The notes beneath the pieces were generated by a model. That model saw only the letters and a list, made by a program, of their open reading frames with translations, was not told the origin of the DNA and made no database searches. Below are positions 3,081-62,756 of a DNA stretch of 64,000 nucleotides, piece after piece (the stretch's first letter is position 1; the number at the start of each line of letters is the position of its first letter). The DNA is from a virus. Lineage: Duplodnaviria; Caudoviricetes. The stretch spans positions 4,216 through 68,215 of the IMG/VR virus record IMGVR_UViG_3300047169_000010. One strand, written 5' to 3'. A program made the translations under genes and the position numbers.

Positions 3081-3425
3081 ATGTTCGTTGACCACTACAA
3101 GGTGCTGGGCGTGCCGCCCGGAGCTGACTTCGAAGAAATTCGCAAAGCCTATATAGAGCTGGCCAAGATAAACCACCCAGACATGCTCAGCGGCACAGGC
3201 ATCTTCAGCGATATCACACATAGCTACTGCATTTTGAAAGACTCGGCGCTGCGTAAAATGTACGACGCAGAATGCGCGCTGTTGAAGATGCCTTGCGTAC
3301 CCTGTAAATGGTGCCATGGGCGCGGCGTGGTTGATAGGCAGCGAGGGTTTGGATCTTCTACACGCGGCCCGTGCGCTAAATGCGGTGGTAGCGGGCGCGC
3401 CACGGCCTCGGAGGGCATAAAATGA
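3081..3425 (+). CDS. J-domain (DnaJ-like) co-chaperone with partial zinc finger
   Basis: DHYKVLGV...EEIRKAY..LAKINHPD J-domain with HPD motif; two CxxCxGxG motifs. Confidence 0.88.
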   Translation: MFVDHYKVLGVPPGADFEEIRKAYIELAKINHPDMLSGTGIFSDITHSYCILKDSALRKMYDAECALLKMPCVPCKWCHGRGVVDRQRGFGSSTRGPCAKCGGSGRATASEGIK

Positions 3426-7931: not shown

Positions 7932-8075
7932 CCGTGTGCAGCGCCGCTTGGGACGGGAAGCATACATTCCGAGGTGGATACTGTATCTTCTGCGGCAATG
8001 AGAACCCACGTAAATCAACGAGTAAGAAATCAAACGCAAAGAAATCTCAAACACGTAAACGAGGGGCGACAAAAA

Positions 8076-9158
8076 ATGTTCAGCATAAGTGATGGCAGCG
8101 TATACGGCCCACAGATACGCCAGTTCTTCCAAACGCAGTTCCCAACCAACACCGCCAAGACGGACGGTGACGTACTCGAGCTGCTGACGGCGGCGATAGT
8201 CGCCACAGGTAAGGTGCGGCTCGGGGCCAAGCCCAGCATTGAGACTCTGTACCTGATAAGGAAGTACGTGACCGGGCAGATATTCTTGCAGAAGCCCATA
8301 AACTTCCTAATGCCGTGGGGCAGCGAAAAGCCGGGGCATTTGCAGACAGTTGACATTGCCGAGGTAGCGGCCATGAAGACGCTGAGCTGCTTACAACAGC
8401 GTGTGCAACATGTGTACGCGCCTGGAATTCACATCCGCGTTCGTGTGGAGGATGCGACTGCACCCAATCTGTTCCCAGACAATCGTGAGCAGGCGCGCAT
8501 GGACGCCAAGGTGTACACCACAAGTCTTGAACGACTTGTGTGGGTGCTAGGTGTGCGTGACTACGTAGAGCTGGTGCCGGAATCGCATATGATAACGGAA
8601 GAAAAGTTTGAGCGCGCATTTGCACCCAATTACGACGCAATGCTTGCGTTTCTTTCAGATACAGAAGGTATGCCGGAGGAGCTATATGCCGCGACCACGG
8701 CGCATTGGCATCTGCGCGACCTAGGCTGGATGGGTATTGTGCCGCTTGCCCAACGCGAACACTACCGCGCCACCTACAGGCGTCTGTACGGTCTTAGCGA
8801 CCAAGCCGCTACCGCCATGCTGGCGCGCTACCTCGCACAGTCGCTTACACGCAAACACTTGCGGATGCTGGGTAACTTAGACTGGGCGGATTATCTAGGA
8901 CTCAGCTTCGTTGGACCGATACCAGGAGACCCAACCGGCATCGCCAGCAAGCGGCTCTACTATCGCACACTGCCAGAGAACGTGAGCAGTATGCACCTAG
9001 CGCCGTGGAGGGCCAAGGGCTACCTAGCCGTCGGTGAAGACGGACTTCGCCCACGCTTGGCAAGCTGGCAGGAGCATCGGCAGTACACACGCAATACAGT
9101 GACGCTGACAGCCGGTGACGTAAGCGTGGACGTACAATCTGATTACGAGGTGATGTGA
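8076..9158 (+). CDS. Divergent Dit1/PvcA/IsnA (isonitrile synthase)-like protein
   Basis: PINFLMPWGSEKP...VDIAEVAAMKTL..LQQRVQHVYAPGIHIRVRVED parallels the PI.F.LPAFP.KS...PD.AE..AL..L.....VYAPGA.I.I.SDG pattern. Start reassigned to ATG 8076 behind GAGGGG. Confidence 0.6.
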   Translation: MFSISDGSVYGPQIRQFFQTQFPTNTAKTDGDVLELLTAAIVATGKVRLGAKPSIETLYLIRKYVTGQIFLQKPINFLMPWGSEKPGHLQTVDIAEVAAMKTLSCLQQRVQHVYAPGIHIRVRVEDATAPNLFPDNREQARMDAKVYTTSLERLVWVLGVRDYVELVPESHMITEEKFERAFAPNYDAMLAFLSDTEGMPEELYAATTAHWHLRDLGWMGIVPLAQREHYRATYRRLYGLSDQAATAMLARYLAQSLTRKHLRMLGNLDWADYLGLSFVGPIPGDPTGIASKRLYYRTLPENVSSMHLAPWRAKGYLAVGEDGLRPRLASWQEHRQYTRNTVTLTAGDVSVDVQSDYEVM

Positions 9159-20097: not shown

Positions 20098-20910
20098 ATG
20101 ATGGAAATCTACATACCAACACGAATGGCGATGGCCCGGTTCCATACCGCGCCGTTGCTCAAGGCGGCGGGCGTAAAGTTCACACTGGTGGTTGACAATG
20201 AGGAACAACGGGCGGCGGCGCATAAGCTGGGCTACAAGCGAACAATGCTCACGCCCAACGTGGCCGACCTAGCGGCTAAGCGTACGGCCATCAACCAGCA
20301 GCACGGCAAAGGCTTCTACATCTCCATGGATGACAACATCCAGGAATTTCAGGCCGTCATGCCGAAGTACATGAAACAGAAAGACCTTGACACCGGCAAC
20401 ACGGCGTTCGCTTGGCGCAAGGTGTTCAATCAACGGATTGCGCCCGCGGACATGGTGGACGCGCTGGGCGATCTGTCTGAAATGTGCGTCCACCATGGCA
20501 CTGTATACGGCGGCGTGGCTACGATGGAAAACCCTTTCTTTCGCGGCGGTGAGCGCTACGCTTATCGCCGGTTTGTGAAGGGGAAGATATTCGTCATGGA
20601 GGCCGACCCGCAACTTGAATTCAAGTACAGTATGGTCGAAGACTCCTACATGACGGCGCAAGTGCTGGCCATGTACGGCAGCGTGGTCGTGGACAAGCGA
20701 CTGTTTTACCGGGCGCGCTGGTACGAGCCCGGAGGCCATGGAACGCGAGAGCAGCGCGAGGCAAACGGTTTGATGGATCACCTGCGCAGTATCTGCGCTG
20801 AGTATCCAGGCTTGGTTGGCGTGGGCAAGGGCGGCAACACGGCCTTGCGCGTGCTGCGAACGAGTGAGAACGGAATCAATAAGTGGCGAGAGGAGAACGG
20901 GTATCTATGA
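20098..20910 (+). CDS. TAGT/GREB1-like glycosyltransferase 1
   Basis: IYIPTR N-terminus, AKR..I, SMDDN (DxD-like), VEDSYMT.Q.L..YG, PGGHG, EYPGLV. Confidence 0.75.
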   Translation: MMEIYIPTRMAMARFHTAPLLKAAGVKFTLVVDNEEQRAAAHKLGYKRTMLTPNVADLAAKRTAINQQHGKGFYISMDDNIQEFQAVMPKYMKQKDLDTGNTAFAWRKVFNQRIAPADMVDALGDLSEMCVHHGTVYGGVATMENPFFRGGERYAYRRFVKGKIFVMEADPQLEFKYSMVEDSYMTAQVLAMYGSVVVDKRLFYRARWYEPGGHGTREQREANGLMDHLRSICAEYPGLVGVGKGGNTALRVLRTSENGINKWREENGYL

Positions 20911-21761
20911 AAGACAATCGGTTGGTGATTTATCACGGCAATTGCATGGACGGCTTCACGGCGGCGTGGGCTGTATGGCTAAAGCACCCGGACGCTGAGT
21001 TCGTAGCGGGTGTGTACGGCGAACCGCCGCCGGACTGCACGGGGCGCGACGTGATTCTGGTTGACTTCAGCTACAAGCGACCGGTGATGGAGCAGATCAT
21101 TGCCGTGGCTAAGTCGGTGTTGGTGCTTGACCATCACAAGACTGCACAAGCAGACCTTGCCGGGCTGGACACAGTTTTTGAATTGCACGATAAAGTGAAT
21201 GTGATCTTCGACATGGACAAGTCCGGCGCGCGACTGGCGTGGGAGCACTTCCATCCATTTATGGGTTTGCCGTTGTTCGTGCAGATGGTGGAGGATCGTG
21301 ACCTCTGGAAGTTCTCACTTCCTGATTGCCGCGCACTTAGCGCTTACTTCTTCAGCTTTGAGTATGACTTCATGACGTGGAACGGGTTTCTCAACGATAT
21401 GGAAGCCGTTGCGACGCGTACGCGATGCATCGCAGCCGGCGAAGCCATTGAGCGCAAACATCACAAGGACGTCGCCGAGTTAGTGACTAAGACACGGCAC
21501 GTACGATACTTCGTGCATGGTGCGCTGGGTCCGATTCCGTGTGCGAACCTGCCTTACACCTTAGCCAGTGACGCTGCCAACCTGATGGCTGAGGATGCAC
21601 CGTTCGCCGCCACTTACTACATGGATGCGCGCGGCGATTACGTATTCAGTCTGCGCAGCCGCGAAGACGGTGCGGACGTCAGCGCTGTCGCAGCAAAGTA
21701 CGGCGGTGGCGGTCATGCGCACGCTGCCGGGTTCCGCATCAAAAGTCTGGAGGAGCTGTGA
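20907..21761 (+). CDS. DHH/DHHA1 phosphoesterase
   Basis: YHGNCMDG, VDFS, LDHH, DRDLW, GGGGHAHAAGF. Confidence 0.9.
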   Translation: MKDNRLVIYHGNCMDGFTAAWAVWLKHPDAEFVAGVYGEPPPDCTGRDVILVDFSYKRPVMEQIIAVAKSVLVLDHHKTAQADLAGLDTVFELHDKVNVIFDMDKSGARLAWEHFHPFMGLPLFVQMVEDRDLWKFSLPDCRALSAYFFSFEYDFMTWNGFLNDMEAVATRTRCIAAGEAIERKHHKDVAELVTKTRHVRYFVHGALGPIPCANLPYTLASDAANLMAEDAPFAATYYMDARGDYVFSLRSREDGADVSAVAAKYGGGGHAHAAGFRIKSLEEL

Positions 21762-22525
21762 AAATTTACATCCCAACCTTGGCGCGTACAGACAATCAGA
21801 TTACACTGCACAACCTTCCTAATTTAGTTTTGGAGGATGTGGTGCTGGTGGTCGACAAGAAAGATCGTATACCGTTTGGCGGTGCGTCTACTATACTGAC
21901 TTGCCCTGCACACGGAATCGGCAAGGTGCGCCAGTGGATCATTGACAATCACGATGTGAAGAAGTACGGTAGGTCATTGCTGATGTTGGACGACGACCTG
22001 TCATTCGCCGTGCGGCGCAAGGATGATCCCACCAAGTTTCTACCTTCTACAGCTGCTGACGTTATAGCGATGTTGAACGAAACAGCTGATATGGCGCAAG
22101 AGTACGCGCATGGTGGAATTCTTAGTCGCGAAGGAGGAAATCGTGTTCTTAGCAACTACAAAGAAAATAGCAGAAATCTGCGCGCGCTATTTTACGATGT
22201 GACCATAATGCGAAAACTTGACATTCGCTTCGATAGAATTCCCGTCATGGAAGATTTCGATGTCGCGCTTCAGTTACTGCGTGCTGGATACCAGAGTATA
22301 ACCGTGGCCCGGTATGTGCAGGATCAGATTCGCAGCAACGCACCGGGCGGCTGTAGCACCTACCGCACCCGCGAAGTGCAGCGGAAGGGCGCGCTGGGTT
22401 TGCAGAAGTTGCATCCGCAGTTTGTGAAGACCGTTGAGAAGACCACCAAAACCGCCTGGAACGGCGAAACCCGCACCGACGTCATGGTGCAATGGAAGAA
22501 GGCATATGAGTCAAGCCAACGATAA
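21758..22525 (+). CDS. TAGT/GREB1-like glycosyltransferase 2
   Basis: KIYIPT.AR, RQWI, MLDDD, MEDFDVALQLLRAGY, SNAPGGCSTYRT, HPQFVK. Confidence 0.85.
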   Translation: MKIYIPTLARTDNQITLHNLPNLVLEDVVLVVDKKDRIPFGGASTILTCPAHGIGKVRQWIIDNHDVKKYGRSLLMLDDDLSFAVRRKDDPTKFLPSTAADVIAMLNETADMAQEYAHGGILSREGGNRVLSNYKENSRNLRALFYDVTIMRKLDIRFDRIPVMEDFDVALQLLRAGYQSITVARYVQDQIRSNAPGGCSTYRTREVQRKGALGLQKLHPQFVKTVEKTTKTAWNGETRTDVMVQWKKAYESSQR

Positions 22526-22647: not shown

Positions 22648-23625
22648 ATGAATAAGCCTTACATCCAAGAACCGCCGTTTTCTGTTCAGGTTGAGCTTGT
22701 TCAGGGCTGCAACCTGATGTGTGGATTCTGTGGTATCAACGGAATTCGTGAGAAAGCTGGCAACTACGACTTCGCCAACATTGAAACAATCCACGCCACA
22801 GCGTCGCAGATGGCCGAGGCTGGCTGGACGAGCATGATCATCTTAGCCATGCACGGCGAGCCGAGTTTGCACCCACGACTTGCTGACTGCATTGCCACGC
22901 TGCGCAGATACCTACCTAAGAACGATATTACACTTGTCAGTAACGGCAGTGGATTCAATCGTCCTGGAAAGCAGAAGCAACTGGTTCAGGACGTGTTTGA
23001 TGCTGGTCTCACCAAGCTAGCCCTTGACGACTACGAGCACAGCGGCTACATTCCAAAGTTGCTGACGGCTCTGGGAGACGACGTACCGTTCAAGGTGCTG
23101 CACTACCCGGCCGACGGGTTGGACACCAGCCCGTGGCGGCGCTGGCCTGCTAAAAAGCAGGCGATTGTGGTGCTGGCGGACTTGCAGAAAAACGCGGCCA
23201 ACCATGTAGGCTTGGCGCAGCTCAGCAACCACTGTGGGGCCGCTGGGCCGCTTACTGAAAAACTTGCTGGGCAAAGGTGCGCCAAAGTTTTTCGGGAGTT
23301 TAGCGTGCGCTGGGACGGCGGCGTGGCGTGCTGTTGTCAAGACTGGAGAGGCACCGTAAAGGTAGGTAACGTCAACGACACGTCAATCGACAGACTGTGG
23401 AACAATAGCGTTATGCAGGCACTCCGGCGCAAACTGTACCACGGCGAAAGAGATTTCGGTGCTTGTCTAGGCTGTGACTATCGTAGTACACGCGTCGGGC
23501 TGCTACCCGATAAGATGGGTAAGGACAGTCTGCCGCGTGCCGATAAGAAGGACATGACTGTGTTGGCTGCGGCAAGCGCCGGTGATTCTTTGACGCAGAT
23601 TGTATTGCGTCCGTGGGAGAAGTGA
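22648..23625 (+). CDS. Radical SAM enzyme with SPASM/Twitch domain
   Basis: CNLMCGFC (CxxxCxxC), HGEP, and C-terminal C...WDG...CCCQDW...GNV...LWN...C..C. Confidence 0.9.
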   Translation: MNKPYIQEPPFSVQVELVQGCNLMCGFCGINGIREKAGNYDFANIETIHATASQMAEAGWTSMIILAMHGEPSLHPRLADCIATLRRYLPKNDITLVSNGSGFNRPGKQKQLVQDVFDAGLTKLALDDYEHSGYIPKLLTALGDDVPFKVLHYPADGLDTSPWRRWPAKKQAIVVLADLQKNAANHVGLAQLSNHCGAAGPLTEKLAGQRCAKVFREFSVRWDGGVACCCQDWRGTVKVGNVNDTSIDRLWNNSVMQALRRKLYHGERDFGACLGCDYRSTRVGLLPDKMGKDSLPRADKKDMTVLAAASAGDSLTQIVLRPWEK

Positions 23626-24595: not shown

Positions 24596-25453
24596 ATGAA
24601 AAGACTTGAAGATTTGTTCGCCTTTATGAAGGAACGGTATTCTATCACACAGAAGAAGAATGCCGGTGAACCGAAGCCGTGGACATCAGACGAAGTTCTG
24701 CAAAAATATCGCTTTTGCAATATCAATCGCGAAGACGATACGGTCACACGGTGGATCGCCAAGAACTGGCGCAAGCCCAACGCCGCAGACCCACACCTAT
24801 GGTTCGCAATGGTGGTGGCTCGGTTTATCAACTGGCCAGATACTTTGGCGGAGATTGAATATCCGCACATAGACGTGTTTGAGAAGTGGGTACAGCTCAG
24901 GTTCGCGAAGTCTGTGCAGTACAGAGAAGTAAATGGGTTGAAGGTGTACGGCGGCGCGTACACCATCAGCACCAACGGGCGCGCCATGGTGAAGTGGAAA
25001 TACCTTGTTGAACATGTGTTCAAACCGCTGTGGGAAGCGCATGAAGAAATTGAATCCGTGCTGGCGACGCCACGATTGCATCTTGCGGCTCTACACGAAG
25101 AACTGTGTAGATTCCAAGGGTTGGGCAGTTTCATGTCTGCACAAGTTATCGCTGATCTGAAATACGTACAGCTGAAGAAAGCGCCCGACTGGTGGACGTT
25201 CGCGGCCAGCGGCCCTGGAAGTAGACGTGGGCTGAATATAGTATTCGGCGCAGACATGAACCGTAGCTGGCGTCCCGGCGAATGGGATGAAAACTTCATG
25301 GAACTGTATGGAAGAGTGGCGCTGATGTGGGCGTCAGAGGGATTTCCGCGCATTCATGCACAAGACGTTCAGAACAGTTTGTGCGAGTTTTCGAAGTACT
25401 ACAAGGTGCTGACGGGCGCGGGTAGACCACGACAATTGTACACAGGAGTATGA
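24596..25453 (+). CDS. 5-hmdU DNA kinase helical-domain family protein (aGPT-Pplase1-like)
   Basis: F..ER..I...K..G.P.PWT.D.VLQKYRFCNI.REDD.VT.WI signature; GPGSRRGL; VQNSLCEFSKY. No Walker A motif is visible. Confidence 0.85.
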   Translation: MKRLEDLFAFMKERYSITQKKNAGEPKPWTSDEVLQKYRFCNINREDDTVTRWIAKNWRKPNAADPHLWFAMVVARFINWPDTLAEIEYPHIDVFEKWVQLRFAKSVQYREVNGLKVYGGAYTISTNGRAMVKWKYLVEHVFKPLWEAHEEIESVLATPRLHLAALHEELCRFQGLGSFMSAQVIADLKYVQLKKAPDWWTFAASGPGSRRGLNIVFGADMNRSWRPGEWDENFMELYGRVALMWASEGFPRIHAQDVQNSLCEFSKYYKVLTGAGRPRQLYTGV

Positions 25454-25528: not shown

Positions 25529-25744
25529 ATGTACGTCCTCAACAAGAAGAAAGACAAACTGTACGCCGTGAACTATGACACTAAGGCCGTCGTAGAATTG
25601 GGAATCATATTGAGACTTGAGCGCACCGCCATGGGTGTTATGACCACCGGCGGTCGCAAGGTTGACCACAGAATTGTGAGCGTATATCTCACCAATCGCA
25701 CACGACTAAGAATACCAATCGCTTTGTTCTACGAGGAGGAGTAA
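25529..25744 (+). CDS. Hypothetical protein
   Basis: AAGGAG RBS; abuts the next gene. Confidence 0.45.
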   Translation: MYVLNKKKDKLYAVNYDTKAVVELGIILRLERTAMGVMTTGGRKVDHRIVSVYLTNRTRLRIPIALFYEEE

Positions 25745-26766
25745 TGCACGTAATCACAGCAGTTGACGTAAATGACGCATTGGCACAGGGACTTGAATAT
25801 ATTTTCACGTACGGCAAAGAAGAACCCAGCCGCAACGGGCCGGTGCTGGTAGCACCCACGCCGGTGACCACCAAGTATCTGTACCCGCACCGACGCGTGC
25901 TATTCAGCCCCACGCGAGATGCTAACCCGGTATTTCATTGTCTAGAGGCGCTCTGGATGCTCGCAGGCCACAACGACATCGCGTTCCCCAAGAAGTTCAA
26001 CAGCAAGTTCGGCGCTTACAGTGACGACGGCGTAACCCAACGTGGCGCGTACGGCTACAGGTGGCGGCAGTGGTTCGGGTATGATCAACTCAAGGTTATC
26101 ATCGACGAGTTGAAGACCAACTCTGCCAGTCGTCGGTGTGTGCTTGCCATGTGGGATGGAGGACAGCTGTCGTACTGGGATAACGACACAACTCGTGGCG
26201 AACCACATCCGGGAGACCTTCTTGCCACGACAGTTGACAAACCATGCAATACTCACATCTACTTCCGCGTTCGCGACGGTGTGCTTGATATGACAGTGTG
26301 CTGCCGTAGCAACGACATTCTGTGGGGTGCGTACGGGGCCAACGCCGTCCACATGAGCTTCCTGTTGGAGTACATGGCCACCGCCATCGGTGTCAGTATG
26401 GGTGTGTATTATCAGGTCAGCAACAACTACCACCTCTACACTGATGTCCTGGGTCGTGAGAAGGGAGAACAGATTATAGAGGAATGCCACGGGGCGCTGT
26501 TAGTCGTTGAGAATGTGCCGCTTGTGGCAAACCCAGAAACCTTTGACAAAGAACTTCAGCGGTTCATGCAAAACCCCGGCGCGGCGTTTGACTATGAAAA
26601 TGAGTTCCTGGGCCGCGTTGGTATGCCGATGTATCTTGCGTGGGAAGCCAAGTCGACGTCTATCACGGATGCGCTAGCGCACGCAGCTTACATCACTGAC
26701 ACAGCTTGGAGATTAGCATGTACCGAATGGTTAGAAAGACTTGAGGTAAGACGAAGTGGAAGATAG
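25744..26766 (+). CDS. Thymidylate synthase-fold dUMP hydroxymethylase (5-hmdU synthase)
   Basis: SRNGPV, DANPVFH.LEALWMLAG, GAYGYRW, SRR, KPCN (catalytic Cys), RSND and WGAYGAN. Asn at the specificity position indicates dUMP rather than dCMP. Confidence 0.85.
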   Translation: MHVITAVDVNDALAQGLEYIFTYGKEEPSRNGPVLVAPTPVTTKYLYPHRRVLFSPTRDANPVFHCLEALWMLAGHNDIAFPKKFNSKFGAYSDDGVTQRGAYGYRWRQWFGYDQLKVIIDELKTNSASRRCVLAMWDGGQLSYWDNDTTRGEPHPGDLLATTVDKPCNTHIYFRVRDGVLDMTVCCRSNDILWGAYGANAVHMSFLLEYMATAIGVSMGVYYQVSNNYHLYTDVLGREKGEQIIEECHGALLVVENVPLVANPETFDKELQRFMQNPGAAFDYENEFLGRVGMPMYLAWEAKSTSITDALAHAAYITDTAWRLACTEWLERLEVRRSGR

Positions 26767-27322
26767 AACCGTTCTAAAGAAGAAGCTGCAATTCATGCTT
26801 GAGGGCAGCGCGGTACAGCGCTTCCACACACGAGCACCGCTGCGACCCAATACCGTGGGGCACCATAGCAACGGCGTTGCTCTAATCTGCTACATGATCT
26901 GGTGGGGTGACAACGCCTGTCTACCACGCCCACATCTGATACTGGCAGCTTGTACGCACGATCTTGCTGAGCAAGTAACTAGTGACGTTAGCGCGCCCGC
27001 CAAGCGACTGCTCGACATTCGCGATATTCTACACCTTTTAGAGAACGAAAAGTTGGCTGACCATGGCATGGACTTCGATCGCTATCTAACAGAGGAAGAG
27101 CTGGCGGCGTTGCGTATGGCCGACCTGTTTGACGCCATGCTGCTGTGCTGCCAGGAAGTTGCGGCGGGTAACAAGATGATGATACTGCCGTATAGACGGA
27201 TGCGTGAATGGGTGCGAGAAGTCTACACTACGCTCACACCGACCATGGCTGAACTCTTTATGGCCATACAAGAAATCATGCAGGAATACAGGGAGGAACC
27301 GACTTATGACTGTTTCAGCTAA
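26756..27322 (+). CDS. HD-domain 5'-deoxynucleotidase/dNTPase (YfbR-like)
   Basis: VQRFH...TVGHHS...THDLAE...D...P.K...MAD..D. Confidence 0.8.
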   Translation: MEDRTVLKKKLQFMLEGSAVQRFHTRAPLRPNTVGHHSNGVALICYMIWWGDNACLPRPHLILAACTHDLAEQVTSDVSAPAKRLLDIRDILHLLENEKLADHGMDFDRYLTEEELAALRMADLFDAMLLCCQEVAAGNKMMILPYRRMREWVREVYTTLTPTMAELFMAIQEIMQEYREEPTYDCFS

Positions 27323-53051: not shown

Positions 53052-53357
53052 TCAGTTTCCGACTTTCGCGGCGATCGGGACGACATTTGTCAACTCCGTC
53101 TTTATAATGGGACTGCCGCTGCGCGCCACACCTAAGCGGTCAATCATGGGGAGCTTGTTCCACACCGCGCCGCACACCTTGCAGACGTGTTGCAGCATGA
53201 GGCGTCCATTTTCCTGCATACCGCGGATAATGCCGTTGGTGTGACCACAGCACGGGCACGGCTCATTCACGTCTTCTTGTGGGATAGGCGGCGGCGGTGG
53301 CGGACCGAATATCTTGATGAGCAAAGCCACGAACGCATTGATGTAGAAAAGTATCAC
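53052..53357 (-). CDS. Zinc-ribbon protein with hydrophobic N-terminus
   Basis: GTG overlapping the TerL stop; CPCC and CKVC motifs. Confidence 0.5.
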   Translation of the reverse strand: MILFYINAFVALLIKIFGPPPPPPIPQEDVNEPCPCCGHTNGIIRGMQENGRLMLQHVCKVCGAVWNKLPMIDRLGVARSGSPIIKTELTNVVPIAAKVGN

Positions 53358-55306
53358 GCTACACGTCCCATTTTCCTGACCTGACCGGCGCTGACAGGCT
53401 GCGACAGCACATTCTTCATCTCCTGGTGACCACACTGCGCACAACGAATCCCACCCGGAACACGTTGTAGAATAGCACACCCGCAGATTTCGCCGTCGAC
53501 CACGTTCTGACAGCGCGGCGTGTTGTCGCCGAACGGTATCTTGGCGATCGCGGCGGGGCGCACGTTCGGCACCTTGTCGCTAAACGGGCTGTAAAACTCC
53601 ACCATCTCGTCAGCAGCTGTGTGCGCTACTTCTTCCTTCACGGCAACCCCGGTCGCTGCCGCTAGCGTGTCCTGTCGCCACTTGCGATTCTTCATATCTT
53701 CCTCCTGCTGCTGTAGCAGCCACGCTACAAAGCCGCTTTTGAAGCCGTGCGCTTGCAAGTATACCCCAGCCTGTGTCATCATATCGACGTCGTCATCGTA
53801 CCGAATTCCTGGGAACTTGGTGATGTGCTCAATAAACGGCCCCGTCCATGCCGCGTTGCGATCGACATACCAGTTGTGCGCCTGCCACTCGCCGCATACG
53901 GCGTACATACGGCTCACCTTGCCGCCCTCGGGATCAACGGCAATCATCCCGGCCACTTTTTTGCGCATAGAAGCGATAACCGCGCTCCCATTCGCCTTGT
54001 CTTCAACCAGATTTGCACGCGCTTTCCACTTCAAACGCTGACGATTTATCTCTTTTTCAGTCGCCGGCGAGTCCAAATGTTTGGTCACGACCTCCAAAAT
54101 GAACCGATTCGGCCCTTTTACACCCACGGTGCCCACACATACGAAGTCACTCGTCTTCGTGTCCTTGAAAGCGCAATCCGTAGACGTTATCACAACATCA
54201 AAACGATCTGGAAGGTCAATATCGTTCTCGCCGGTATGTGGATTCATGCCTCCGTAGTACATGATATCCATCAATTTGATCATATTTCCTTCAAGGGACG
54301 TCGGTCTCCCTTGATATTGCGTCGTCCATATGTGTCTCAGAATCTTCCAAGCGTTCACAACCGACGGCGTAAACCTGTCCGGCTGCAATACGTCACCCAG
54401 CGGACGTTCGTGAACGGTGCCGCTTACAGGGTACACATATTTCTGCGTCAACGTTTTTGAGTCAACCGCGTCCTCGTCAGCCTCAAGCGGGATGCAAAGC
54501 GTCGTCCATTCAGGGTCTTTTCCGTCCGCAACGAGCTGTTTATCAGCTTCTTGGCAGTAACCGGTCAAGTCGAGTTCGCCGGTGCGCTGCTCAACGATGA
54601 TCATAACGTCTTCGCTGGGGTTGTTCAAGCGCGAACGCCATGTGTTGCTGAACCATGTGTGCAAACTGGTTACAATTGCCTCGCTGGCGACCTCGTCAGG
54701 CTTCAAACCGTCATCAACGATGAGGAAATTGCCGCCAATTCCCGTCAATGTGCCGCCCACCGACGTGGCGAACATCTGAGCCTGGAAGTTGTTCTGAAAC
54801 TTTGACTTCTGGTTCTGATCCTTCTGCAACCACACCCGGTCGCCCCACAGGCGTTGGAACCACGCTGACTCAAGCAGGCGGCGACGTTTTACACTGTGCT
54901 CTTCGCTGAGACCCTGCGCGTAGCTGGCACACACGAAACTTTGATTCGCAGTGCTCACCCCAGCGCCCTTGACGCGGCACCACACCCACACCGGGAACAT
55001 AACCGTGACCAACATTGACTTCAGCGTTCTGGGAGGGATGTTTATTATCAGCCGTCGGCATTTCTTGGCCGCGGCGAGTGACAGATACTCAGCGATCAGG
55101 TCGTAGTGCCAACTCCAAGAAAGCGGATTCCCGGGCTCAAGAATGGTCCATGCGGCCTTGGCAAACTCAGTAAACGACGACTCAAGCCGTCTTTTTTCTT
55201 CGAACGTCGTCTGCTCGTCACTCGTACGCTTCTTGTCGTCTTCCATAGACGCAAGCAGGAGCAGCAGTTCGTTCTGTTCTTCTTCACTCAGCTTGCTTAT
55301 ATCCAC
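53354..55306 (-). CDS. terL: Terminase large subunit
   Basis: LIINIPPRTLKS (Walker A), FLIVDD (Walker B), STDCAFK..SD, VEDKANG, DDDVD. GTG start at 55306. Confidence 0.93.
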   Translation of the reverse strand: MDISKLSEEEQNELLLLLASMEDDKKRTSDEQTTFEEKRRLESSFTEFAKAAWTILEPGNPLSWSWHYDLIAEYLSLAAAKKCRRLIINIPPRTLKSMLVTVMFPVWVWCRVKGAGVSTANQSFVCASYAQGLSEEHSVKRRRLLESAWFQRLWGDRVWLQKDQNQKSKFQNNFQAQMFATSVGGTLTGIGGNFLIVDDGLKPDEVASEAIVTSLHTWFSNTWRSRLNNPSEDVMIIVEQRTGELDLTGYCQEADKQLVADGKDPEWTTLCIPLEADEDAVDSKTLTQKYVYPVSGTVHERPLGDVLQPDRFTPSVVNAWKILRHIWTTQYQGRPTSLEGNMIKLMDIMYYGGMNPHTGENDIDLPDRFDVVITSTDCAFKDTKTSDFVCVGTVGVKGPNRFILEVVTKHLDSPATEKEINRQRLKWKARANLVEDKANGSAVIASMRKKVAGMIAVDPEGGKVSRMYAVCGEWQAHNWYVDRNAAWTGPFIEHITKFPGIRYDDDVDMMTQAGVYLQAHGFKSGFVAWLLQQQEEDMKNRKWRQDTLAAATGVAVKEEVAHTAADEMVEFYSPFSDKVPNVRPAAIAKIPFGDNTPRCQNVVDGEICGCAILQRVPGGIRCAQCGHQEMKNVLSQPVSAGQVRKMGRVA

Positions 55307-55455
55307 GTGGGAACCTCTTTGCGGTATTGCCTCCCGGCAGCGGAACGCCCGCCAAGGCCTCAAGCAGCAGGGCGGCGCAGAACTCTTCGCCCAGCAACGC
55401 AGCCATTTCATACGGTTGTATCAATTGCGTTGATGAATTGCGCCGCATCGTCCGT

Positions 55456-56575: not shown

Positions 56576-56684
<109 letters not shown>

Positions 56685-56694
56685 AGGTTTTGTA

Positions 56695-57208
56695 CATGGC
56701 GGTGATAAGTGCCGGGTATTCTGTTGCTAGGAACCCGGCGAACCCCGACCGCTGTTAGGCGGCCAACGGAAGAGCAGAACGCTCGGGCCGGGTAAAGGCA
56801 AGAACGTTGCTACGCTTCGTACTGTCACTTTGGGTGGCAGTTGTTTGTCAGGCTCTCGTTACGGTGAGCACCCAGTTCCGGCACGGTCCATGAATTGTTG
56901 AACACCCCGTCGAAGCCGTGACACGCCCACAAAGAAATACACTGTTCTTACTAACCGCTATCTACTGACGTAGACCGCGTGCGCGGTGCGCAGTGTACTT
57001 CTTGGTGGACGTGGCGGGAGTCGAACCCGCGTCCGCGACGTCCTCCAATTCACTTCATACTGTGCGTACTGCATGGGTGGCCCGCTTTGGGTTCTGTGTC
57101 CTGCGGGAGTCCCACTCGCGCAGTTGACAGAATCCCGGCGCTGCCACCCAACTTACGGGGCGACTAACGGCTTCGCCTCCACCACCCGGCGTACATAGCA
57201 CCGGGGCT
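56695..57208 (-). ncRNA. ssrA: Circularly permuted (two-piece) tmRNA gene
   Basis: The acceptor piece ends GCGGGTTCGACTCCCGC-CACGTCC-ACCA at 57003. After a 74-nt intervening segment, the coding piece starts GGGCGTG-TCACGGCTTCGACGGGG at 56928. The acceptor stem has G3-U70; helix 2 is CAATTCA/TGAATTG; the tag ORF ends LAA-stop. Outer ends are approximate. Confidence 0.9.
56755..56838 (-). other. tmRNA tag reading frame ATQSDSTKRSNVLAFTRPERSALPLAA*
   Basis: Resume codon GCC after ACAACT; 27 codons, then TAA. Confidence 0.85.
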
Positions 57209-57444
57209 GTACCCAGTATACATATTGGGCTGTGTGACGGCTAGCTCTTCTTGAAGAACGCAGATATGAACGCGATGGGTGCAACAATGGGTGTGATTAT
57301 AACGGCACCCACCTTGAGCGTGGTGTGGTCAAAGAAATCGCACTGCTCGGTTGATGTGAACATGTCACGGACCACATGACCAGTATGCGTGAACGGGTTT
57401 ACCATTGGCAGAACCTCCTGTGCACTCTTAGTGTATACGCAACG

Positions 57445-57744
57445 CTAGTAGTCGTCCCACTCAGGAATGGCCACCGTCTTACCCTTCATGGTGTGGGTAC
57501 AGTCGTCGAGGAACTGCATCTGTCCGTCTTTCACAAGCGAATGGCACAGATGCTCTGTCGGGTTGCTGCGACCCACGTTGTAGAGTACTGAGGGCGCGAG
57601 CGTCGGCGAATCAAAGCTGCCGTTCCACTGCCAACCGGCTCCGTTCTCCATTTTCTTACCGTTGACTGCCACCATATGATTGGTGTCGCATCCTGGGCAG
57701 TGCCAGACGACGTAGTTCGGTTCTATTTCGTGGAACTTGGCCAT
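57445..57744 (-). CDS. DUF6527-like Cys/His protein
   Basis: CPGC..H.V......W.WNGS.D.PTL.PSVL....CHS.V.DG..QFL.DCTH. Confidence 0.7.
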   Translation of the reverse strand: MAKFHEIEPNYVVWHCPGCDTNHMVAVNGKKMENGAGWQWNGSFDSPTLAPSVLYNVGRSNPTEHLCHSLVKDGQMQFLDDCTHTMKGKTVAIPEWDDY

Positions 57745-57940
57745 TGGGTGTGCCTCCTGCTGGGAAGTATAGCTTCTTCAGAACCTCCGATGGGCAAGAA
57801 CTCAGGCTTCGGCTCCTCCGTCATGATGATCGCCAAATTCAAAATCTTCGGAGTTCGAGTCGAGTCGGCCCGAACGAGGTGCCCATGGGGGTGAGTTTGG
57901 TTGTAAGAGGGTGGGGTACCAGCAATCGCATGGCCAGACG

Positions 57941-57980
57941 CCTGTGCAAAACCTGTGCAAACCCTGTGCAAAAGTGCAAA
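57941..57980 (+). repeat. Tandem (C)TGTGCAAA repeats upstream of the promoter
   Basis: CTGTGCAAA three times plus GTGCAAA. Confidence 0.7.
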
Positions 57981-58009
57981 TATATTTTGCCGTAAACGTA
58001 ATTTTGTGC

Positions 58010-58037
58010 TTGCAATTGCGGAGCGGTATGGTACTAT
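58010..58037 (+). promoter_or_regulatory. Sigma70-type promoter of the GA/TC-free gene
   Basis: TTGCAA-16 nt-TACTAT with TGG extended -10 and an AT-rich upstream tract. Confidence 0.7.
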
Positions 58038-58089
58038 TACCACAGTAGGCAGTAAGGTAATACACACTGTAACTAAGGCAGGTAACACA

Positions 58090-58566
58090 ATGGCAACTGT
58101 AGCAGCACAGCCCACCACGCAAGCCAAGCCCACCACGCAAGCCAAGCCCACCACGCAAGCCAAGCCCAGCAAAGCCGCACAGCGCGTAGCAGCGGCCAAA
58201 GCCATGGCCAAGGGCATTACCACACAAGCGCTTGCAGCACAGCCCACCACGCCTACGGTGCCCGCGCCCAAAGCCACTACGGCTTTGGTGGTGGCTACCA
58301 CGCAAGCGGCGCAAGTGGTAAACACTGCGTATTACCAAACCGTTGTTACCAGCGTTGGCGCGGCCAAGGTTGGCAAGCCGGGCACGTTTTTTGGCAACTT
58401 GCAAAACATGGCACAGCAGCCCATTACGTTGCAAGCGCTTATTGCACAGGCCGTGGCTGGTAACAAATTTACCAGCAAAAAAAGCCATGCCTTTGTGGCC
58501 ACGGTGCGTACGCGCCACGCGCTTACGCGGTTGGGGTACTTAGTTGCAGTACCCGCAAAAGCGTAA
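58090..58566 (+). CDS. Basic 158-aa protein with no Asp or Glu, encoded without any GA/TC dinucleotide
   Basis: ATG 58090 follows AAGGCAGGT; PTTQAK tandem repeat (18 nt, three copies); the C-terminal domain aligns with ORF 19088. Confidence 0.85.
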   Translation: MATVAAQPTTQAKPTTQAKPTTQAKPSKAAQRVAAAKAMAKGITTQALAAQPTTPTVPAPKATTALVVATTQAAQVVNTAYYQTVVTSVGAAKVGKPGTFFGNLQNMAQQPITLQALIAQAVAGNKFTSKKSHAFVATVRTRHALTRLGYLVAVPAKA

Positions 58567-58585
58567 CCCAAACGGTTACACAACA

Positions 58586-58620
58586 CAAAGGCCACTGCCC
58601 AACCGGGGCAGTGGCCTTTG
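58586..58620. terminator. Bidirectional terminator-like hairpin
   Basis: CAAAGGCCACTGCCC/GGGCAGTGGCCTTTG 15-bp perfect stem between convergent genes. Confidence 0.75.
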
Positions 58621-58700
58621 GTGCGTTGGTACCCATTTGTTTGGGGTGGGGCCGCGCACGCGCCCGCGCCATGCCATGCCCCGTCAAACCGAAACGACGC

Positions 58701-58896
58701 TCACGTCGCTGCGATGTGACTTCCTACGCCAAACGAAAGCCGCATCGCAGTGACCTGACATCCACACGACGTTCACGTCGCAGCGATACGAGGATGTCAC
58801 GTCGCTGCGATGTGAAAACCAAACTGCACACCACGGGCGCGTCGCATCGCTGCGACGTGAAAGCCGAAACGACGAACTCACATCGCAGCGACACGA
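58701..58896. repeat. Cluster of five 19-bp palindromic sites TCAC(A/G)TCGC(A/T)GCGA(T/C)GTGA
   Basis: Copies at 58701, 58773, 58797, 58842 and 58878; further copies at 59382, 59733 and 60357. Confidence 0.85.
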
Positions 58897-58977
58897 AAGC
58901 CGAAATCTACTTTAGAAGCCGAGGCGCTAAGGCCTCGGCTCCCAACGGCCTAAAGCCGAAAACGATCGCCGTCTGGG

Positions 58978-59283
58978 TTACCGGGCAATGGGTTCTTCCT
59001 CTTCATCCCACAATGTTTGCATAAAATCAACAAACACCATGCGAACCTCTTCCGGCGCGCTGTCCAGGTAACTTGTGCCGCCTGCTGGCACCGCCTTGCA
59101 TACGCCTGCGCGATGCTGAGCGGGCACAGTTGCCAGCCAAGTTTCTGCGGCGGCGAACTCTTCAGGGGTTGCGCTTGCGATGTCCTCAGGACCGCGCCCT
59201 TTGATGTCCATGTCTTGCCTGCCGGTTGCACGATTGTTGTCGGCTACAAATGCCTGTAGCGCCTGCGTGAGTAGTGGGTACAT
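58978..59283 (-). CDS. Small acidic hypothetical protein
   Basis: ATG 59283 follows AAGGCGG; acidic C-terminus DEEEE. Confidence 0.55.
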   Translation of the reverse strand: MYPLLTQALQAFVADNNRATGRQDMDIKGRGPEDIASATPEEFAAAETWLATVPAQHRAGVCKAVPAGGTSYLDSAPEEVRMVFVDFMQTLWDEEEEPIAR

Positions 59284-59421
59284 TTGATATGCCGCCTTTT
59301 GGGTGTGCCGTAGTTGCATATATAAAGGCTAACCAAATCGCGCCGCTGACAGCCAAATTTATTTTAGTCAAAGCCGAAACGTCACATCGTTGCGATTAGA
59401 CCTACACGAAAGTCGAAAACC

Positions 59422-59691
59422 TCACCTCAGCAGCTTGGGATCCGTGATCTCAGTAAACCGTTTATGGCCCACGTCTCGCGTCACGGGTATGTACACGCCG
59501 TTTATGACGGGTGACTCACGCACGGCCTGCGCCAGCGGGCCATAACCCTCGCCGCTCGGTGACTCAACAGCGGCGCGGAACTCGTCCTTGGTAAAGGCTC
59601 GTCCGCAGAAGCCTGTGAGTAGAACGTCCTTGTCCATGGCAACCAACTGTCGCCGCATTTGAATTTGCTTTGCCGCCTTTTTCAACGCCAT
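59422..59691 (-). CDS. Hypothetical protein
   Basis: GAGGTG RBS before ATG 59691. Confidence 0.55.
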   Translation of the reverse strand: MALKKAAKQIQMRRQLVAMDKDVLLTGFCGRAFTKDEFRAAVESPSGEGYGPLAQAVRESPVINGVYIPVTRDVGHKRFTEITDPKLLR

Positions 59692-59713
59692 GTGATACAC
59701 CTCGCTTGCGTTC

Positions 59714-59751
59714 CACTATAACAGTAGGGAGGTCACGTCGCTGCGATTTGA
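59714..59751 (-). promoter_or_regulatory. Extended -10 promoter (TGTTATAGT) with a 19-bp palindrome over the -35 position
   Basis: The same arrangement is repeated at 60339-60375. Confidence 0.6.
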
Positions 59752-59799
59752 CCACCTATAAGACGAAAAGAGCCGAGAATCACCTCGGCTCCTCAGGTC

Positions 59800-60150
59800 T
59801 TACGCGAGCGCTGCGTGGCGATTGCCGCCGAAGTCGCGATAGCTGCGAAATATACGGTTGCCGTCGTAATCCCAGCCAAGCTCGTTCAACTTGGACACAA
59901 TCTTGTTGCGCGCAGCAATCCAATCGCGCAACGGTAGCGCGTTCGCATAGCTGGGGCCGAGTGCGTCAAGTTCTTTTCCCAGTGCCAATACTTCACGTGT
60001 TTGTCGCCTGAGCCTCTTGGGCGCGACAGCCTTTGCAAGCTGCTTGGCAGTGTAGTCGCCCTCGGGCAGGCTGATCTTGCCAGCGCGGTCGGCTGCAATG
60101 GTTGCTGCTACGGTGGAGGCGGAGACGGTGGTTGCGATTTTCTTTGCCAT
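59800..60150 (-). CDS. Hypothetical protein
   Basis: GAGGGT RBS; 116 aa. Confidence 0.55.
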   Translation of the reverse strand: MAKKIATTVSASTVAATIAADRAGKISLPEGDYTAKQLAKAVAPKRLRRQTREVLALGKELDALGPSYANALPLRDWIAARNKIVSKLNELGWDYDGNRIFRSYRDFGGNRHAALA

Positions 60151-60660
60151 GATATTACCCTCGTGTTACCGGTTTGGACTGCCCTACTGCCTTACTGAAA
60201 CTATCTACGCGCTCAACAGAAAGAACGCAGGCATTATTTGCTGAAAATCCTCCTGGGGCAGCTTTAGCCTGCCGCCTATATAAAGGCTACGGCCCGCCAC
60301 GCATGACTGACAAGCCGAGGGTCACGGCTCTTCCAACCACTATAACAGCAGGGAGGTCACGTCGCTGCGATGTGACTTCCTACGCCAAACGAAAGCCGAG
60401 GCGCTAAGGCCTCGGCTCCCACGCTACTCAGCAAATTGCTTTCTTGTATAGCCCAGCATCAAGTCCCTGAAGTTTGCCACCCTGACCCTCTCCAACACGT
60501 TGGCCGCCTCACCATCCCCTGACTTCAACATGTGCTGTTGTGCGTTGAAAAGAATTCCCCATCCGTCGCGTATCGTTGATTTCATTGTACTGCCTCCATG
60601 GGCGGCATTGCCGCTACCTAAAGGCTACGGCCCGCGCCACATGAATGACAATAGCCGAAA

Positions 60661-61203
60661 TCACGCTTTCGCATCCTCGGCGTCCTGAACCCTCTGCTCT
60701 ATCTCCTCAACGGCGGCCATAGCCAAGAGCTCGGCTACTCGGGCCTTCTTTTCGTCGGGAGTCAAAGCCGAAATCTCAAGAGGTCCGCCCCCGGCTCCCG
60801 TCACAGCCGTCGCAGTGGCGAGCTTCCCCTCCACGCGATCTATCAGCAACTCAAAGCTCCGCATGTCGCCGTCCAACGCCTGCTTGAGCAGGTTAGCCGC
60901 CAACGCGTCGGCCTGCGTGAAGTTACGAGCCTTGTACGTCTTGCTCGGGCCTCGGTATGGTTCTTGAAGAAACTGCTTCATCTTAGAGGACAGAGGCTTT
61001 GGATTTCTTAGGGCCATCGGTCCTCCGTTCCCCGGTTGAAATCCTGCCTTGCGCCTGATTTCGTCTATTCCCGGGTCCTCGCCCTTCGGTCTGAAGAATC
61101 CTTTTGGTTTTGGTTTTTGGAGCTCTAAACTCGGGTCTTCCCGCGCTGGCAGGTGTTTATCGCCGGAAACTTCACTTTCTATCGTGACAGGAAAGCTGCT
61201 CAT
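60661..61203 (-). CDS. terS: Terminase small subunit (DUF5681-like)
   Basis: AGFQPGNGGP; ADALAANLLKQALDGDMRSFELLIDRVEGK; TGAGGGPL. Start set at ATG 61203. Confidence 0.7.
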   Translation of the reverse strand: MSSFPVTIESEVSGDKHLPAREDPSLELQKPKPKGFFRPKGEDPGIDEIRRKAGFQPGNGGPMALRNPKPLSSKMKQFLQEPYRGPSKTYKARNFTQADALAANLLKQALDGDMRSFELLIDRVEGKLATATAVTGAGGGPLEISALTPDEKKARVAELLAMAAVEEIEQRVQDAEDAKA

Positions 61204-61484
61204 CGTGAACGCCTCTGGTAGCCGAAATAGAACTAACTGACACAAGTATGCCACAGCCGTACAAATATGCCACAGCACGGCCACCGTGGGTGATTGCGGC
61301 GCGCGTCGCATTGCCATCACCAGAGGGCCAGCGAAGGTGCTGGGCTGGTACCCTACGCCAAACGGCTGCGAAGGCTGTAAAACGCCGCAACAATGGCAAA
61401 CTTTACAGGATAAAGTATATATCCTCTAACCCCTGTATAAAATAGATCTTAGCGAGCGTCAACTCTAAATTTGCATCAATCTGA

Positions 61485-61760
61485 GTGCATTACCCATACT
61501 TGGCAAAACGCCACAACCTCAACCCGCAGAGTATGTTAGATGAGTTACCCACACTACCCACGGCAAAACGGCCTGTTGGCGCTATTTATATACGGGGCAC
61601 CATTTTGGTGCTGCTACGGCTTACCACCCACTCTATATATATATACATAGTATGGGTATATATGGGTAGTGAGGGTAACAATGTGTTATGAGCAACATAG
61701 ACGCCCACACTACCCCGCCAAACGATGATCCTACCCACACTATGAAACAGTCAAAACGCG
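61485..61760. repeat. Origin-like region: TACCCA(C/T)AC iterons around a (TA)n core
   Basis: Copies near 61491, 61546, 61555 and 61732; inverted TATGGGTA copies near 61651-61668; TATATATATATA at about 61634-61645. Confidence 0.55.
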
Positions 61761-61991
61761 TGAATCACGCGCGATAACCCCAAAACTTTCACGACTTTGA
61801 CAGAGTTAGTCTGTACCCTGAGTAGCGAGCTACAAAGCCCTTTTCGGTAGTGATATCACACCACGACAACACAAAACCGTCAAACCGGCCGACCAGCCGA
61901 GGCCTGACAACCCAGTCCCCAGATCACCTACAAACGGCTATCACGCACCCCAAACCCACCTTCATAATGTTTGGGACGTCGTGTATAGTCA

Positions 61992-62276
61992 TCAGGACAC
62001 CCACTTCTTAGGTGCGAACCACGCCGCGTAATCTGCCGGTCTTTCAATGTTGAACTCAGGTCGGTGCAGCTTCACCAGGATGAATGCGGCCCGGAATGCC
62101 TCTTGCTCGTCACCGCAGACCACGGCGTAAAGGCACGACCTGAACCAGTAGTCGCGATGTTCATTCATTTGAAGTTCCATGGATCGCGCATCCTCACGAT
62201 ATTGCGGCGTGTGCATGAACGATTGATCGGTCATCTCTTTCACCTTTGCCGGTGTTGCTTCTAAGTTCTTTAGCAT
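61992..62276 (-). CDS. Hypothetical protein
   Basis: GGAGG RBS. Confidence 0.5.
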   Translation of the reverse strand: MLKNLEATPAKVKEMTDQSFMHTPQYREDARSMELQMNEHRDYWFRSCLYAVVCGDEQEAFRAAFILVKLHRPEFNIERPADYAAWFAPKKWVS

Positions 62277-62468
62277 TGAACCTCCTTGAATGCTTCGTGC
62301 GGCGGAAGAACTGAGGCCCGAAGCCCGAGCTCCCGCGCCGCATCATTCCTGCCAGCATTGCGGCGTAGTGCAGGATGCCGAATGCCTCAATATCGTTGAA
62401 GACATGATGTTGTGCGTGTTGAAGAACCCGCACCGCGTCAGCGTTAGACGTATAAGTTTGATCCGTCA

Positions 62469-62756
62469 TCATCTTTCCTCCCCGCATTGAATGCACACGT
62501 CGTACGCCGGTTCTATAAGCTCCCCATCGTCGTCCACGGCTTCCTGCCAGTCGTGGTCACACTCTTCAATCGGTAACATGCAGTTGCAATCCTCACCACC
62601 GAGGAGCTGCGCACCGCACTCGCCGCATTCACGAACGTCAATCCACGCACCCGGTTCGCCGTCTTCCTCTACCCATTTCTTATTTGCGTTGGGACATCCC
62701 GTCTCGTGGCAGAAGACGCCGTTGATCATCAGGGCTTGGCATTGGTCGCAGTTCAT
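62469..62756 (-). CDS. Cys-rich small phage protein
   Basis: MNCDQCQALMINGVFCHETGCP; start reassigned to 62756. Confidence 0.55.
   Translation of the reverse strand: MNCDQCQALMINGVFCHETGCPNANKKWVEEDGEPGAWIDVRECGECGAQLLGGEDCNCMLPIEECDHDWQEAVDDDGELIEPAYDVCIQCGEER

Follow-up and report, generated by a model that had tools for sequence, protein, structure and literature searches.

Thymidine hypermodification has been described in Pseudomonas phage M6, Salmonella phage ViI, Delftia phage PhiW-14 and Acinetobacter phage SH-Ab 15599 (PMC5889632, PMC8989533, PMC6449724, PMC13458397), in which only those thymines that stand in certain steps, TG or TC, are converted. The motifs that direct it were stated as not known by Lee et al. 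2018 (PMC5889632). Resistant restriction sites in M6, ViI and PhiW-14 contain TG or TC, and a preference of the kinase for these steps has been proposed (Flodman et al. 2019, PMC6449724); the alpha-dapT of SH-Ab 15599 is placed chiefly at TG and to a smaller extent at TC, and TTAA and AATT sites in its DNA are cut completely (2026 study, PMC13458397). Here we describe a 68,215-nucleotide (nt) contig of an uncultured soil/moss phage (IMG/VR record IMGVR_UViG_3300047169_000010), of which bases 4216-68215 form a stretch of 64,000 nt referred to below as the window. Like the phages named above, it encodes members of the thymidylate-synthase, kinase and radical SAM families, and it also contains an island purged of the dinucleotides GA and TC, which encloses the gene of a small protein, P0001. 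The papers on those phages report no site-free island, and M6 has none. Here TC, not TG, is avoided; the gene cluster of the window adds two glycosyltransferase-like genes and, unlike in M6-type systems, neither an amino-acid:DNA transferase nor an aGPT-Pplase was recognised among the scanned open reading frames (ORFs).

Two other known phenomena resemble this locus in part. In restriction-site and short-motif avoidance, a short word is likewise removed by selection, and the window genome shows the classical form of it too (TTAA). Classical avoidance, however, is genome-wide, concerns mostly palindromic words of 4-6 bp and rarely alters proteins, whereas here a dinucleotide is missing altogether from just one unit of 0.75-1.2 kb, which costs the protein two amino acids. 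The first-step-transfer region of T5 and the gene 0.3 region of T7 share with this locus the notion of a small unit whose expression by host RNA polymerase has to come first, and repeats adjoin the cassette as they do in the T5 region. The leading regions of T5 and T7 show no dinucleotide purge and no sequence similarity to the cassette; terminal position and stepwise entry are properties of those regions. Full-text searches of the published literature turned up no account of an island from which a dinucleotide has been purged locally. The purge is thus without a published counterpart that we could find; it is confirmed, conserved and far beyond chance, and the mechanism proposed for it below is a plausible hypothesis.

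A putative transcription unit purged of GA and TC dinucleotides

Between a GA at 58021-58022 and a TC at 58684-58685, the sequence runs for 663 nt without GA or TC on either strand. Leftward, the nearest other site is at 57937, and the segment 57938-58684 is divided by its lone GA, which lies in the 16-nt spacer of a promoter-like site, into gaps of 84 and 663 nt. The second-longest gap in the contig measures 148 nt, and a scan of the window revealed no comparable gap for any other dinucleotide pair. Under a first-order Markov model of the window, the probability of one such 663-nt stretch is 1.2e-40 (7.5e-36 across all starts), and the base composition of the segment itself predicts 45 GA and 34 TC (about 79 sites), with 0 + 0 observed. 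The flanks have ordinary to elevated site densities, about 0.155 sites/nt over 240 nt on the left side and 0.16/nt over 210 nt on the right, and the return to about 0.16 sites/nt is abrupt on both sides. An earlier note on this DNA, made by a model from the letters alone, had reported the 663-nt gap, the single site in 57938-58684 and the sudden return of GA/TC at 58684, and had proposed the dinucleotide scan; the site count and the scan agree with it throughout, and its naive estimate of about 1e-38 was of the right order of magnitude.

Avoidance is not a property of the whole genome: window-wide, the observed/expected ratio (o/e) is 0.94 for GA and 0.86 for TC, and the purge is confined to one unit. 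Inside it TT is enriched (o/e 2.05) and GGC is frequent. The 83 nt upstream of the promoter are purged as well (P = 5e-5 on their own). Since the purge is strand-symmetric and includes this promoter-upstream DNA, the constraint acts on duplex DNA and not on the mRNA. Short GA/TC-free stretches (54-57 nt) at other promoter-like leaders were considered and rejected as being close to chance: about 10 gaps of at least 54 nt are expected, as estimated from the window-wide GA/TC rate, and the 15 observed include the two of the island itself and two compositional ones. A promoter-pattern search gave no clear common motif.

The elements of the cassette are listed in Table 1. The putative promoter was called by eye and by alignment with the related locus L008, where its counterpart reads TTGCTA-17-CATACT; it matches 8/12 consensus positions, which is under the threshold of the consensus scan, and so it went unlisted there. 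Four operator-like GTGCAAA repeats lie within the purged zone upstream of the promoter, and the L008 ortholog is preceded by a related GTGCAA-rich stretch. At the other end, purged DNA runs 64 nt past the terminator-like hairpin. The claims that the purge covers leader, coding sequence (CDS) and terminator, with a GA-free ribosome-binding site (RBS; AAGGCAGGT at 58075), and that the CDS uses only TTT for Phe, AGC for Ser and ATT for Ile, ends in TAA and has no Asp or Glu, all hold on inspection. The codons AGA (Arg), GGA (Gly), GTC (Val) and CTC (Leu) are never used either. When the acid-free P0001 was recoded with the codon usage of the genome, 32.7 +/- 4.6 GA/TC resulted (minimum 18 in 2000 draws, actual value 0), so codon choice and codon junctions are constrained in addition to amino acid content.

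Conservation of the purge in related loci

The purge was compared between the window gene and four orthologous metagenome loci (L005, L006, L007 and L008), which share 53-73% DNA identity with it (53-74% pairwise among all five). Each of these loci has 0-1 GA/TC over 0.9-1.2 kb, regulatory DNA included. The sole relative on a viral contig, L004/L005, shows 79% protein identity; L005 has one GA/TC in its first 1,040 nt, where the contig end cuts the purge off. The other three, on metagenome contigs, encode orthologs at 44-57% protein identity and are purged too, with GA/TC-free gaps of 226 and 940 nt in L006, 213, 490 and 512 nt (the last to the contig end) in L007 and 1,178 nt in L008.

The five CDSs differ pairwise at 104-212 aligned positions. 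As few as 20 random substitutions in the window CDS create about 6 GA/TC, and the probability of creating none is below 1/5000. Because the loci nevertheless retain 0-1 sites, the GA/TC ban is kept by continuing purifying selection and does not date from one past event alone. The same persistence rules out that a TC-specific deaminase hypermutated the locus once.

In every locus the purge sets in 150-370 nt ahead of the start codon, so that operator-like repeats and palindromes fall within it; in L006 and L007 it takes in 213-226 nt upstream of the promoter. Downstream it extends in the relatives up to about 550 nt, well beyond one transcript, and it ends 53-54 nt past the last strong hairpin in L005 and L008. 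A second acid-free, homologous ORF of 64-65 amino acids (aa) lies inside the purge at L005:742-939 and L006:2578-2772 (66-69% identity between both); the contig of the window contains no counterpart of it. The ortholog at L009:1473-1949 has an N-terminal extension that is acidic, and its purge is partly relaxed, with 4 sites over some 300 nt; it may represent a cassette that has lost the constraint. Remoter homologs (L010-L014) have normal GA/TC contents, and their neighbours look cellular (FG-GAP/Ig proteins, adenylosuccinate lyase, a response regulator). Searches of GenBank phages gave no match, either by blastn with the locus and 20 kb of the window or by tblastn with P0001, nor did viral-contig scans with P0011, P0012 and P0023 or a scan of reference genomes with the family alignment.

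P0001 and its protein family

P0001 has 158 aa, a pI of 11.3 and no Asp or Glu, and is composed of PTTQAK repeats, a tail rich in Lys, Ala, Pro and Thr, and a C-terminal domain. In the AlphaFold2 model residues 1-69 are disordered and residues 79-158 form a winged helix (pLDDT confidence score 83-89). The beta-3 helix-beta winged helix of the C-terminal 80 residues has MibB as its top VIA-align match (Z 7.1, root-mean-square deviation 2.4 A over 69 residues), followed by PqqD and then by the DNA-binding proteins MecI/BlaI, forkhead and histone H5; the Z scores run from 7.1 to 3.8, a range that the tool rates as unremarkable. Winged helices of this kind occur in recognition elements of ribosomally synthesised and post-translationally modified peptides (MibB, NisB, PqqD) as well as in DNA-binding proteins (MecI/BlaI, histone H5, forkhead), and the combination of a basic disordered tail with a globular winged helix recalls linker histones. 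Foldseek against the PDB returned no match at E <= 0.001, and no family was assigned to P0001 in Pfam or PHROGs. P0001 is probably a nucleic-acid binder, as its pI and basic tail suggest; DNA, RNA and peptide are all conceivable ligands.

A tblastn search against the contig revealed a paralog, P0011, whose gene lies at the head of the hypermodification cluster, immediately upstream of the other genes. It has a helical N-terminus, which models as a generic long helical hairpin, a Lys/Ala-rich linker and, at the C-terminus, the same winged helix. Over its last 70 residues it shares 39% identity with the P0001 domain, with MibB again the best structural match, and its gene has a normal GA/TC density (0.126/nt). 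PHROGs contains no family for P0011, and the ESM Atlas gave viral hypothetical proteins only. In contig G002, too, a long-form homolog is encoded about 3 kb ahead of the kinase gene.

An exhaustive profile search yielded a family of 52 clusters (homologs numbered P0002-P0060). Asp and Glu are absent in six of them (P0001, P0002, P0003, P0006, P0007 and P0023), three others have a single acidic residue (P0012, P0018 and P0026), and all long forms (200-636 aa) contain 6-16% Asp/Glu. In a tree of the shared domain, acid-free forms fall into at least 3-4 clades, each beside acidic sisters, and branches with good support require the state to have changed at least 3 times; P0001-P0003 group with the long, acidic P0014 as their sister and not with P0011 of the same phage. 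At columns where the sisters carry Asp or Glu, the acid-free proteins mostly hold residues whose codons are single-base neighbours of GAN (E to A, 14; E to K, 9; D to G, 9; D to N, 8; E to Q, 6). Because of these repeated switches between clades and the GAN-neighbour replacements, the acid-free state tracks genomic setting and not protein function.

Candidate modification genes and phages with related genes

The contig, which is linear and has no terminal repeats, carries a set of candidate genes for the formation of 5-hydroxymethyldeoxyuridine (5-hmdU) and its further conversion (Table 1). The 5-hmdU DNA kinase is 38% identical to the M6/YuA kinases, and relatives of it occur also in Bordetella phages, PhiW-14 and PaMx11. 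With this toolkit for turning T into 5-hmdU, the kinase, a radical SAM enzyme and two glycosyltransferase-like genes on the contig, a bulky, possibly sugar-bearing thymine modification is plausible for this phage. Of all T in the genome, 24.4% stand before a C. A T7-type RNA polymerase was not found in the contig by a search that also failed to match its control genomes.

Table 1. Positions of the cassette, its surroundings and the candidate modification genes in the window
Feature	Position	Strand	Remarks
GA/TC-purged zone	57938-58684	.	747 nt, single GA
Four direct GTGCAAA repeats, operator-like	57944-57980	+	starts 57944, 57955, 57966, 57974; putative function
Promoter-like TTGCAA-16 nt-TACTAT	58010-58037	+	TTGCAA at 58010, TACTAT at 58032; putative
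GA-free RBS-like (Shine-Dalgarno-like) AAGGCAGGT	58075-58083	+	6 nt ahead of ATG
CDS of P0001	58090-58566	+	ATG 58090, stop TAA, 158 aa
Three tandem 18-nt copies coding PTTQAK	58102-58162	+	repeat family D1
Perfect 15-bp GC-rich hairpin, terminator-like	58586-58620	+	inverted repeat I25
Palindromic repeats, 19-20 bp, TCACGTCGCTGCGATGTGA-like	58701-60376	both orientations	about 8 copies; GA/TC-rich; start 17 nt past purged zone
TerL	53354-55411		left of island
DUF5681 gene (terminase-related)	60661-61320		right of island
dCTP deaminase	3422-3967	+	would supply dUMP pool
Paralog P0011	19088-19834	+	248 aa, 32 Asp/Glu; tblastn against contig
Glycosyltransferase-like	20098-20910	+	second glycosyltransferase-like protein of cluster
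DHHA1 phosphoesterase-like	20883-21761	+	
TET-associated glycosyltransferase (TAGT)	21758-22525	+	
Radical SAM / SPASM enzyme	22648-23625	+	
5-hmdU DNA kinase	24596-25453	+	PF18723 HMUDK_hel, E = 4.6e-43
Thymidylate-synthase homolog, probably dUMP hydroxymethylase	25744-26766	+	E = 7e-19; Pfam cannot separate hydroxymethylase from thymidylate synthase
YfbR-like HD 5'-deoxynucleotidase	26756-27322	+	

Nine other phages with related kinase or glycosyltransferase genes were examined for an island free of any dinucleotide: the cultured phages M6, Bordetella CN1, LuckyBarnes and PhiJL001 (the last two over their first 50 kb), the assembled genome MW202897, and the kinase-sharing IMG/VR records G001, G002, G004 and G005. 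Since none of them shows one, kinase and TAGT-type transferase genes do not suffice for the purge, and the cassette is so far known only from this uncultured lineage. Two stretches in G001, of 534 nt without TA and 282 nt without AT, were rejected as purges, as they correspond to low-complexity coding sequence (an acidic/lysine-rich protein and a tandem-repeat protein).

Possible basis of the purge

The reading that we favour, and to which we give an even prospect of being right, is that the post-replicative T hypermodification of this phage targets 5'-TC and that the unit is kept free of such sites so that it remains plain 5-hydroxymethyluracil (5-hmU) DNA for host RNA polymerase and regulators. 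Thymidine would be replaced by 5-hmdU through the dCTP deaminase, the thymidylate-synthase homolog of dUMP-hydroxymethylase type and the HD nucleotidase. After replication, a subset of 5-hmdU, presumably T before C, would be converted into a bulky, possibly glycosylated form by the kinase, the radical SAM enzyme and the two glycosyltransferase-like proteins. DNA with no TC on either strand could not be hypermodified and would stay plain 5-hmU both in the virion and throughout infection. Selection would then keep such sites out of the whole unit, from the operator-like repeats through promoter, leader and CDS to about 60 nt past the terminator, and host RNA polymerase and the regulators of the unit could bind and read the cassette unhindered.

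Published data on modified templates are relevant here. Transcription of 5-hmU templates in vitro reached 250-350% of normal, and about 10% after phosphorylation by 5-HMUDK (PMC6457204). According to PMC11550810, which cites PMC4838386, the RNA polymerases of E. coli and B. subtilis are blocked at promoters by bulky major-groove groups. We infer TC as the modification context, as well as the block to transcription or binding and the early expression of the unit. The earlier note had placed a bulky group on T in 5'-TC: the constraint on duplex DNA, the selection in relatives and the modification gene set agree with this, whereas the TC specificity comes from the purge itself. Its idea of a pioneer gene, the first that host RNA polymerase must read, is compatible with the data.

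TTAA, a word without a TC step, is absent from the 68 kb (0 observed against about 81 expected under the Markov model) and from L005 (0 against 15), and L006-L008 are also poor in it; the pattern is that of a restriction-site ban of the classical, genome-wide kind. None of the 12 6-bp palindromes that are most avoided contains TC/GA (P = 0.02), and the pooled palindrome o/e is 0.69 without TC/GA and 0.88 with it. GGCGCC (1 against 39 expected), GCATGC (0 against 15) and GTGCAC (2 against 15) are strongly avoided. Both the TTAA and the 6-bp avoidance fit a protection of TC-containing sites by other means. As a whole the palindrome test is mixed: the 6-mers agree with shielding, and TCGA and GATC, the pair of 4-bp palindromes in which each strand has a TC step, disagree.

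Several observations count against the favoured reading. TCGA and GATC are themselves under-represented genome-wide (o/e 0.49 and 0.73), a shortage that does not follow from simple shielding. All other genes, including the leftward early-looking and replication genes, have normal GA/TC contents and must still be transcribed. The TC specificity is deduced from the purge, which makes the argument circular in part. No dinucleotide-free island was found in M6, Bordetella CN1, MW202897 and the first 50 kb each of LuckyBarnes and PhiJL001, nor in G001, G002, G004 and the complete G005. The contig is estimated by CheckV to be about 71% complete, and further modification genes may sit outside it. Read depth, finally, is ambiguous. 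T-hypermodified DNA resists Illumina library amplification (PMC12686479), and in moss run X1 (assembled Logan contigs/unitigs of public runs; positions 56800-62500) the unitig k-mer depth is 8.7 in the left flank, 24.6 in the island and 11 in the right flank, which could reflect better library recovery of unmodified DNA or a cassette common to several strains; the GA/TC-rich repeat region beside the island, however, is also raised (17). In runs X3 and X4 (about 3x) the island is uncovered.

On the same premise, the gain could be a different one: the island would escape a host nuclease that senses hypermodified bases, and the intact fragment would deliver an early anti-defence or protective protein. 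Host END nucleases that depend on modification go to work early in infection and recognise a range of hypermodifications, and phage proteins counteract them (PMC12191111); moreover, the purge margins, which reach 53-72 nt past the transcription signals on both sides at several loci, would form a buffer against distant cutting. Cuts elsewhere in the genome would still kill the infection, however, so that the benefit would require cooperation between infections, and the basic winged-helix product is unlike known nuclease inhibitors. We regard this version as unlikely.

Somewhat more doubtful is a host enzyme that attacks TC/GA whatever the modification state, be it a TC-preferring cytosine deaminase, a DarT-type ADP-ribosyltransferase or a set of restriction enzymes. 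A 5'-TC preference is characteristic of DddA/APOBEC-type deaminases and of DarT motifs, the strand symmetry and dinucleotide resolution of the purge suit it, and the TT enrichment is what TC-to-TT conversion would give. Such pressure would nevertheless be genome-wide, and the confinement of the purge to one unit, with sharp borders near its regulatory and terminator ends, argues against it. Deamination of single strands exposed by transcription is difficult to reconcile with the purging of untranscribed upstream DNA, and the one-off form of this explanation, hypermutation, fails on the conservation described above.

Modification of the purine in 5'-GA, by a 7-deazaguanine as in CAjan and 9g or by a Mom-like adenine adduct, with genes located outside the contig, is very unlikely. 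The dPreQ0 of phage CAjan is located at GA and GGC (PMC7544227), and the incompleteness of the contig leaves room for such genes. The 68 kb at hand, however, contain no match to TGT/DpdA (PF01702), a search in which all control genomes matched, and no methyltransferase was found among the scanned ORFs; GGC is frequent in the island, and a complete thymidine pathway is present instead.

It is likewise very improbable that the purge serves a cis-acting DNA element that must stay unmodified, such as a replication origin, a packaging site or an anchor of a DNA-binding protein, with the gene simply situated inside it. The island does lie between the terminase-related genes and directly abuts the palindromic repeats, and in relatives the purge reaches several hundred nt past the CDS. 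Against this, its borders follow promoter-proximal and terminator-proximal positions in three loci, the L005 cassette is differently arranged relative to TerL, and the number of ORFs is variable (one or two), with the purge extending over them in every case. Selection on the RNA, by which the transcript would avoid GA and UC to evade an endoribonuclease, would account for an RBS that avoids GGAG and for the lack of both words in the whole mRNA, but it is extremely improbable, as DNA upstream of the promoter and behind the terminator is purged too and no RNase is known to demand the absence of a word together with that of its reverse complement.

If the favoured reading, a TC-directed hypermodification from which the unit is exempt, is true, the purged word names the target context of an uncharacterised hypermodification and can be read from sequence. 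It would also constitute a new viral way to square a protective DNA coat with readability by host enzymes, and would show the reach of DNA-level selection on a protein: two amino acids lost and single codons left for Phe, Ile and Ser. Metagenomic scans for locally banned dinucleotides would then flag modified genomes, predict which restriction enzymes or sequencing chemistries fail, and point to a gene likely to be essential at the start of infection. More tentatively, and with a slight lean towards its being wrong, we propose a generalization: some thymine-hypermodifying phages may write modification-free windows into their genomes by deleting the target dinucleotide of the modifying enzyme, such a window would hold a bootstrap gene for a recoded, acid-free twin of a modification-module protein, and the missing word would act as a cis-regulatory code for host-readable DNA that was gained and lost repeatedly in one protein family.

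Other features of the contig

The palindromic repeats to the right of the island are accompanied by duplicated blocks of 29-42 nt (58701/60357 and 58916/60393); repeats and blocks may serve as operators, origins or packaging sites.

A 31-nt reverse-complement copy (30/31 positions) of CDS nucleotides 58190-58220, which encode the family motif AA(K/R)AMAKGIT, is located 1.1 kb ahead of the first base of the window, at L043:3052-3082 in contig numbering. It is part of a hairpin with a 15-bp stem in a divergent early control region and could give rise to a trans antisense RNA against the purged gene, or be the relic of a paralog. The hairpin is not significantly stabler than shuffled sequences (z = -1.55), and no equivalent of the copy was found among the relatives in the comparison.

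The early/replication module also encodes a DnaJ-domain protein (3081-3425, E = 5e-15) and a protein with a weak match to the DIT1/PvcA-like isonitrile-synthase family (7974-9158, E = 0.0025). A permuted (two-piece) transfer-messenger RNA (tmRNA) gene was identified at 56755-57065 on the minus strand (Rfam RF04321, 74.7 bits against a gathering threshold of 47); ARAGORN likewise calls it, with a tag peptide ending in ALPLAA. Beside it lies a perfect (AC)54 microsatellite (56577-56684), which is unusual for a compact phage genome.

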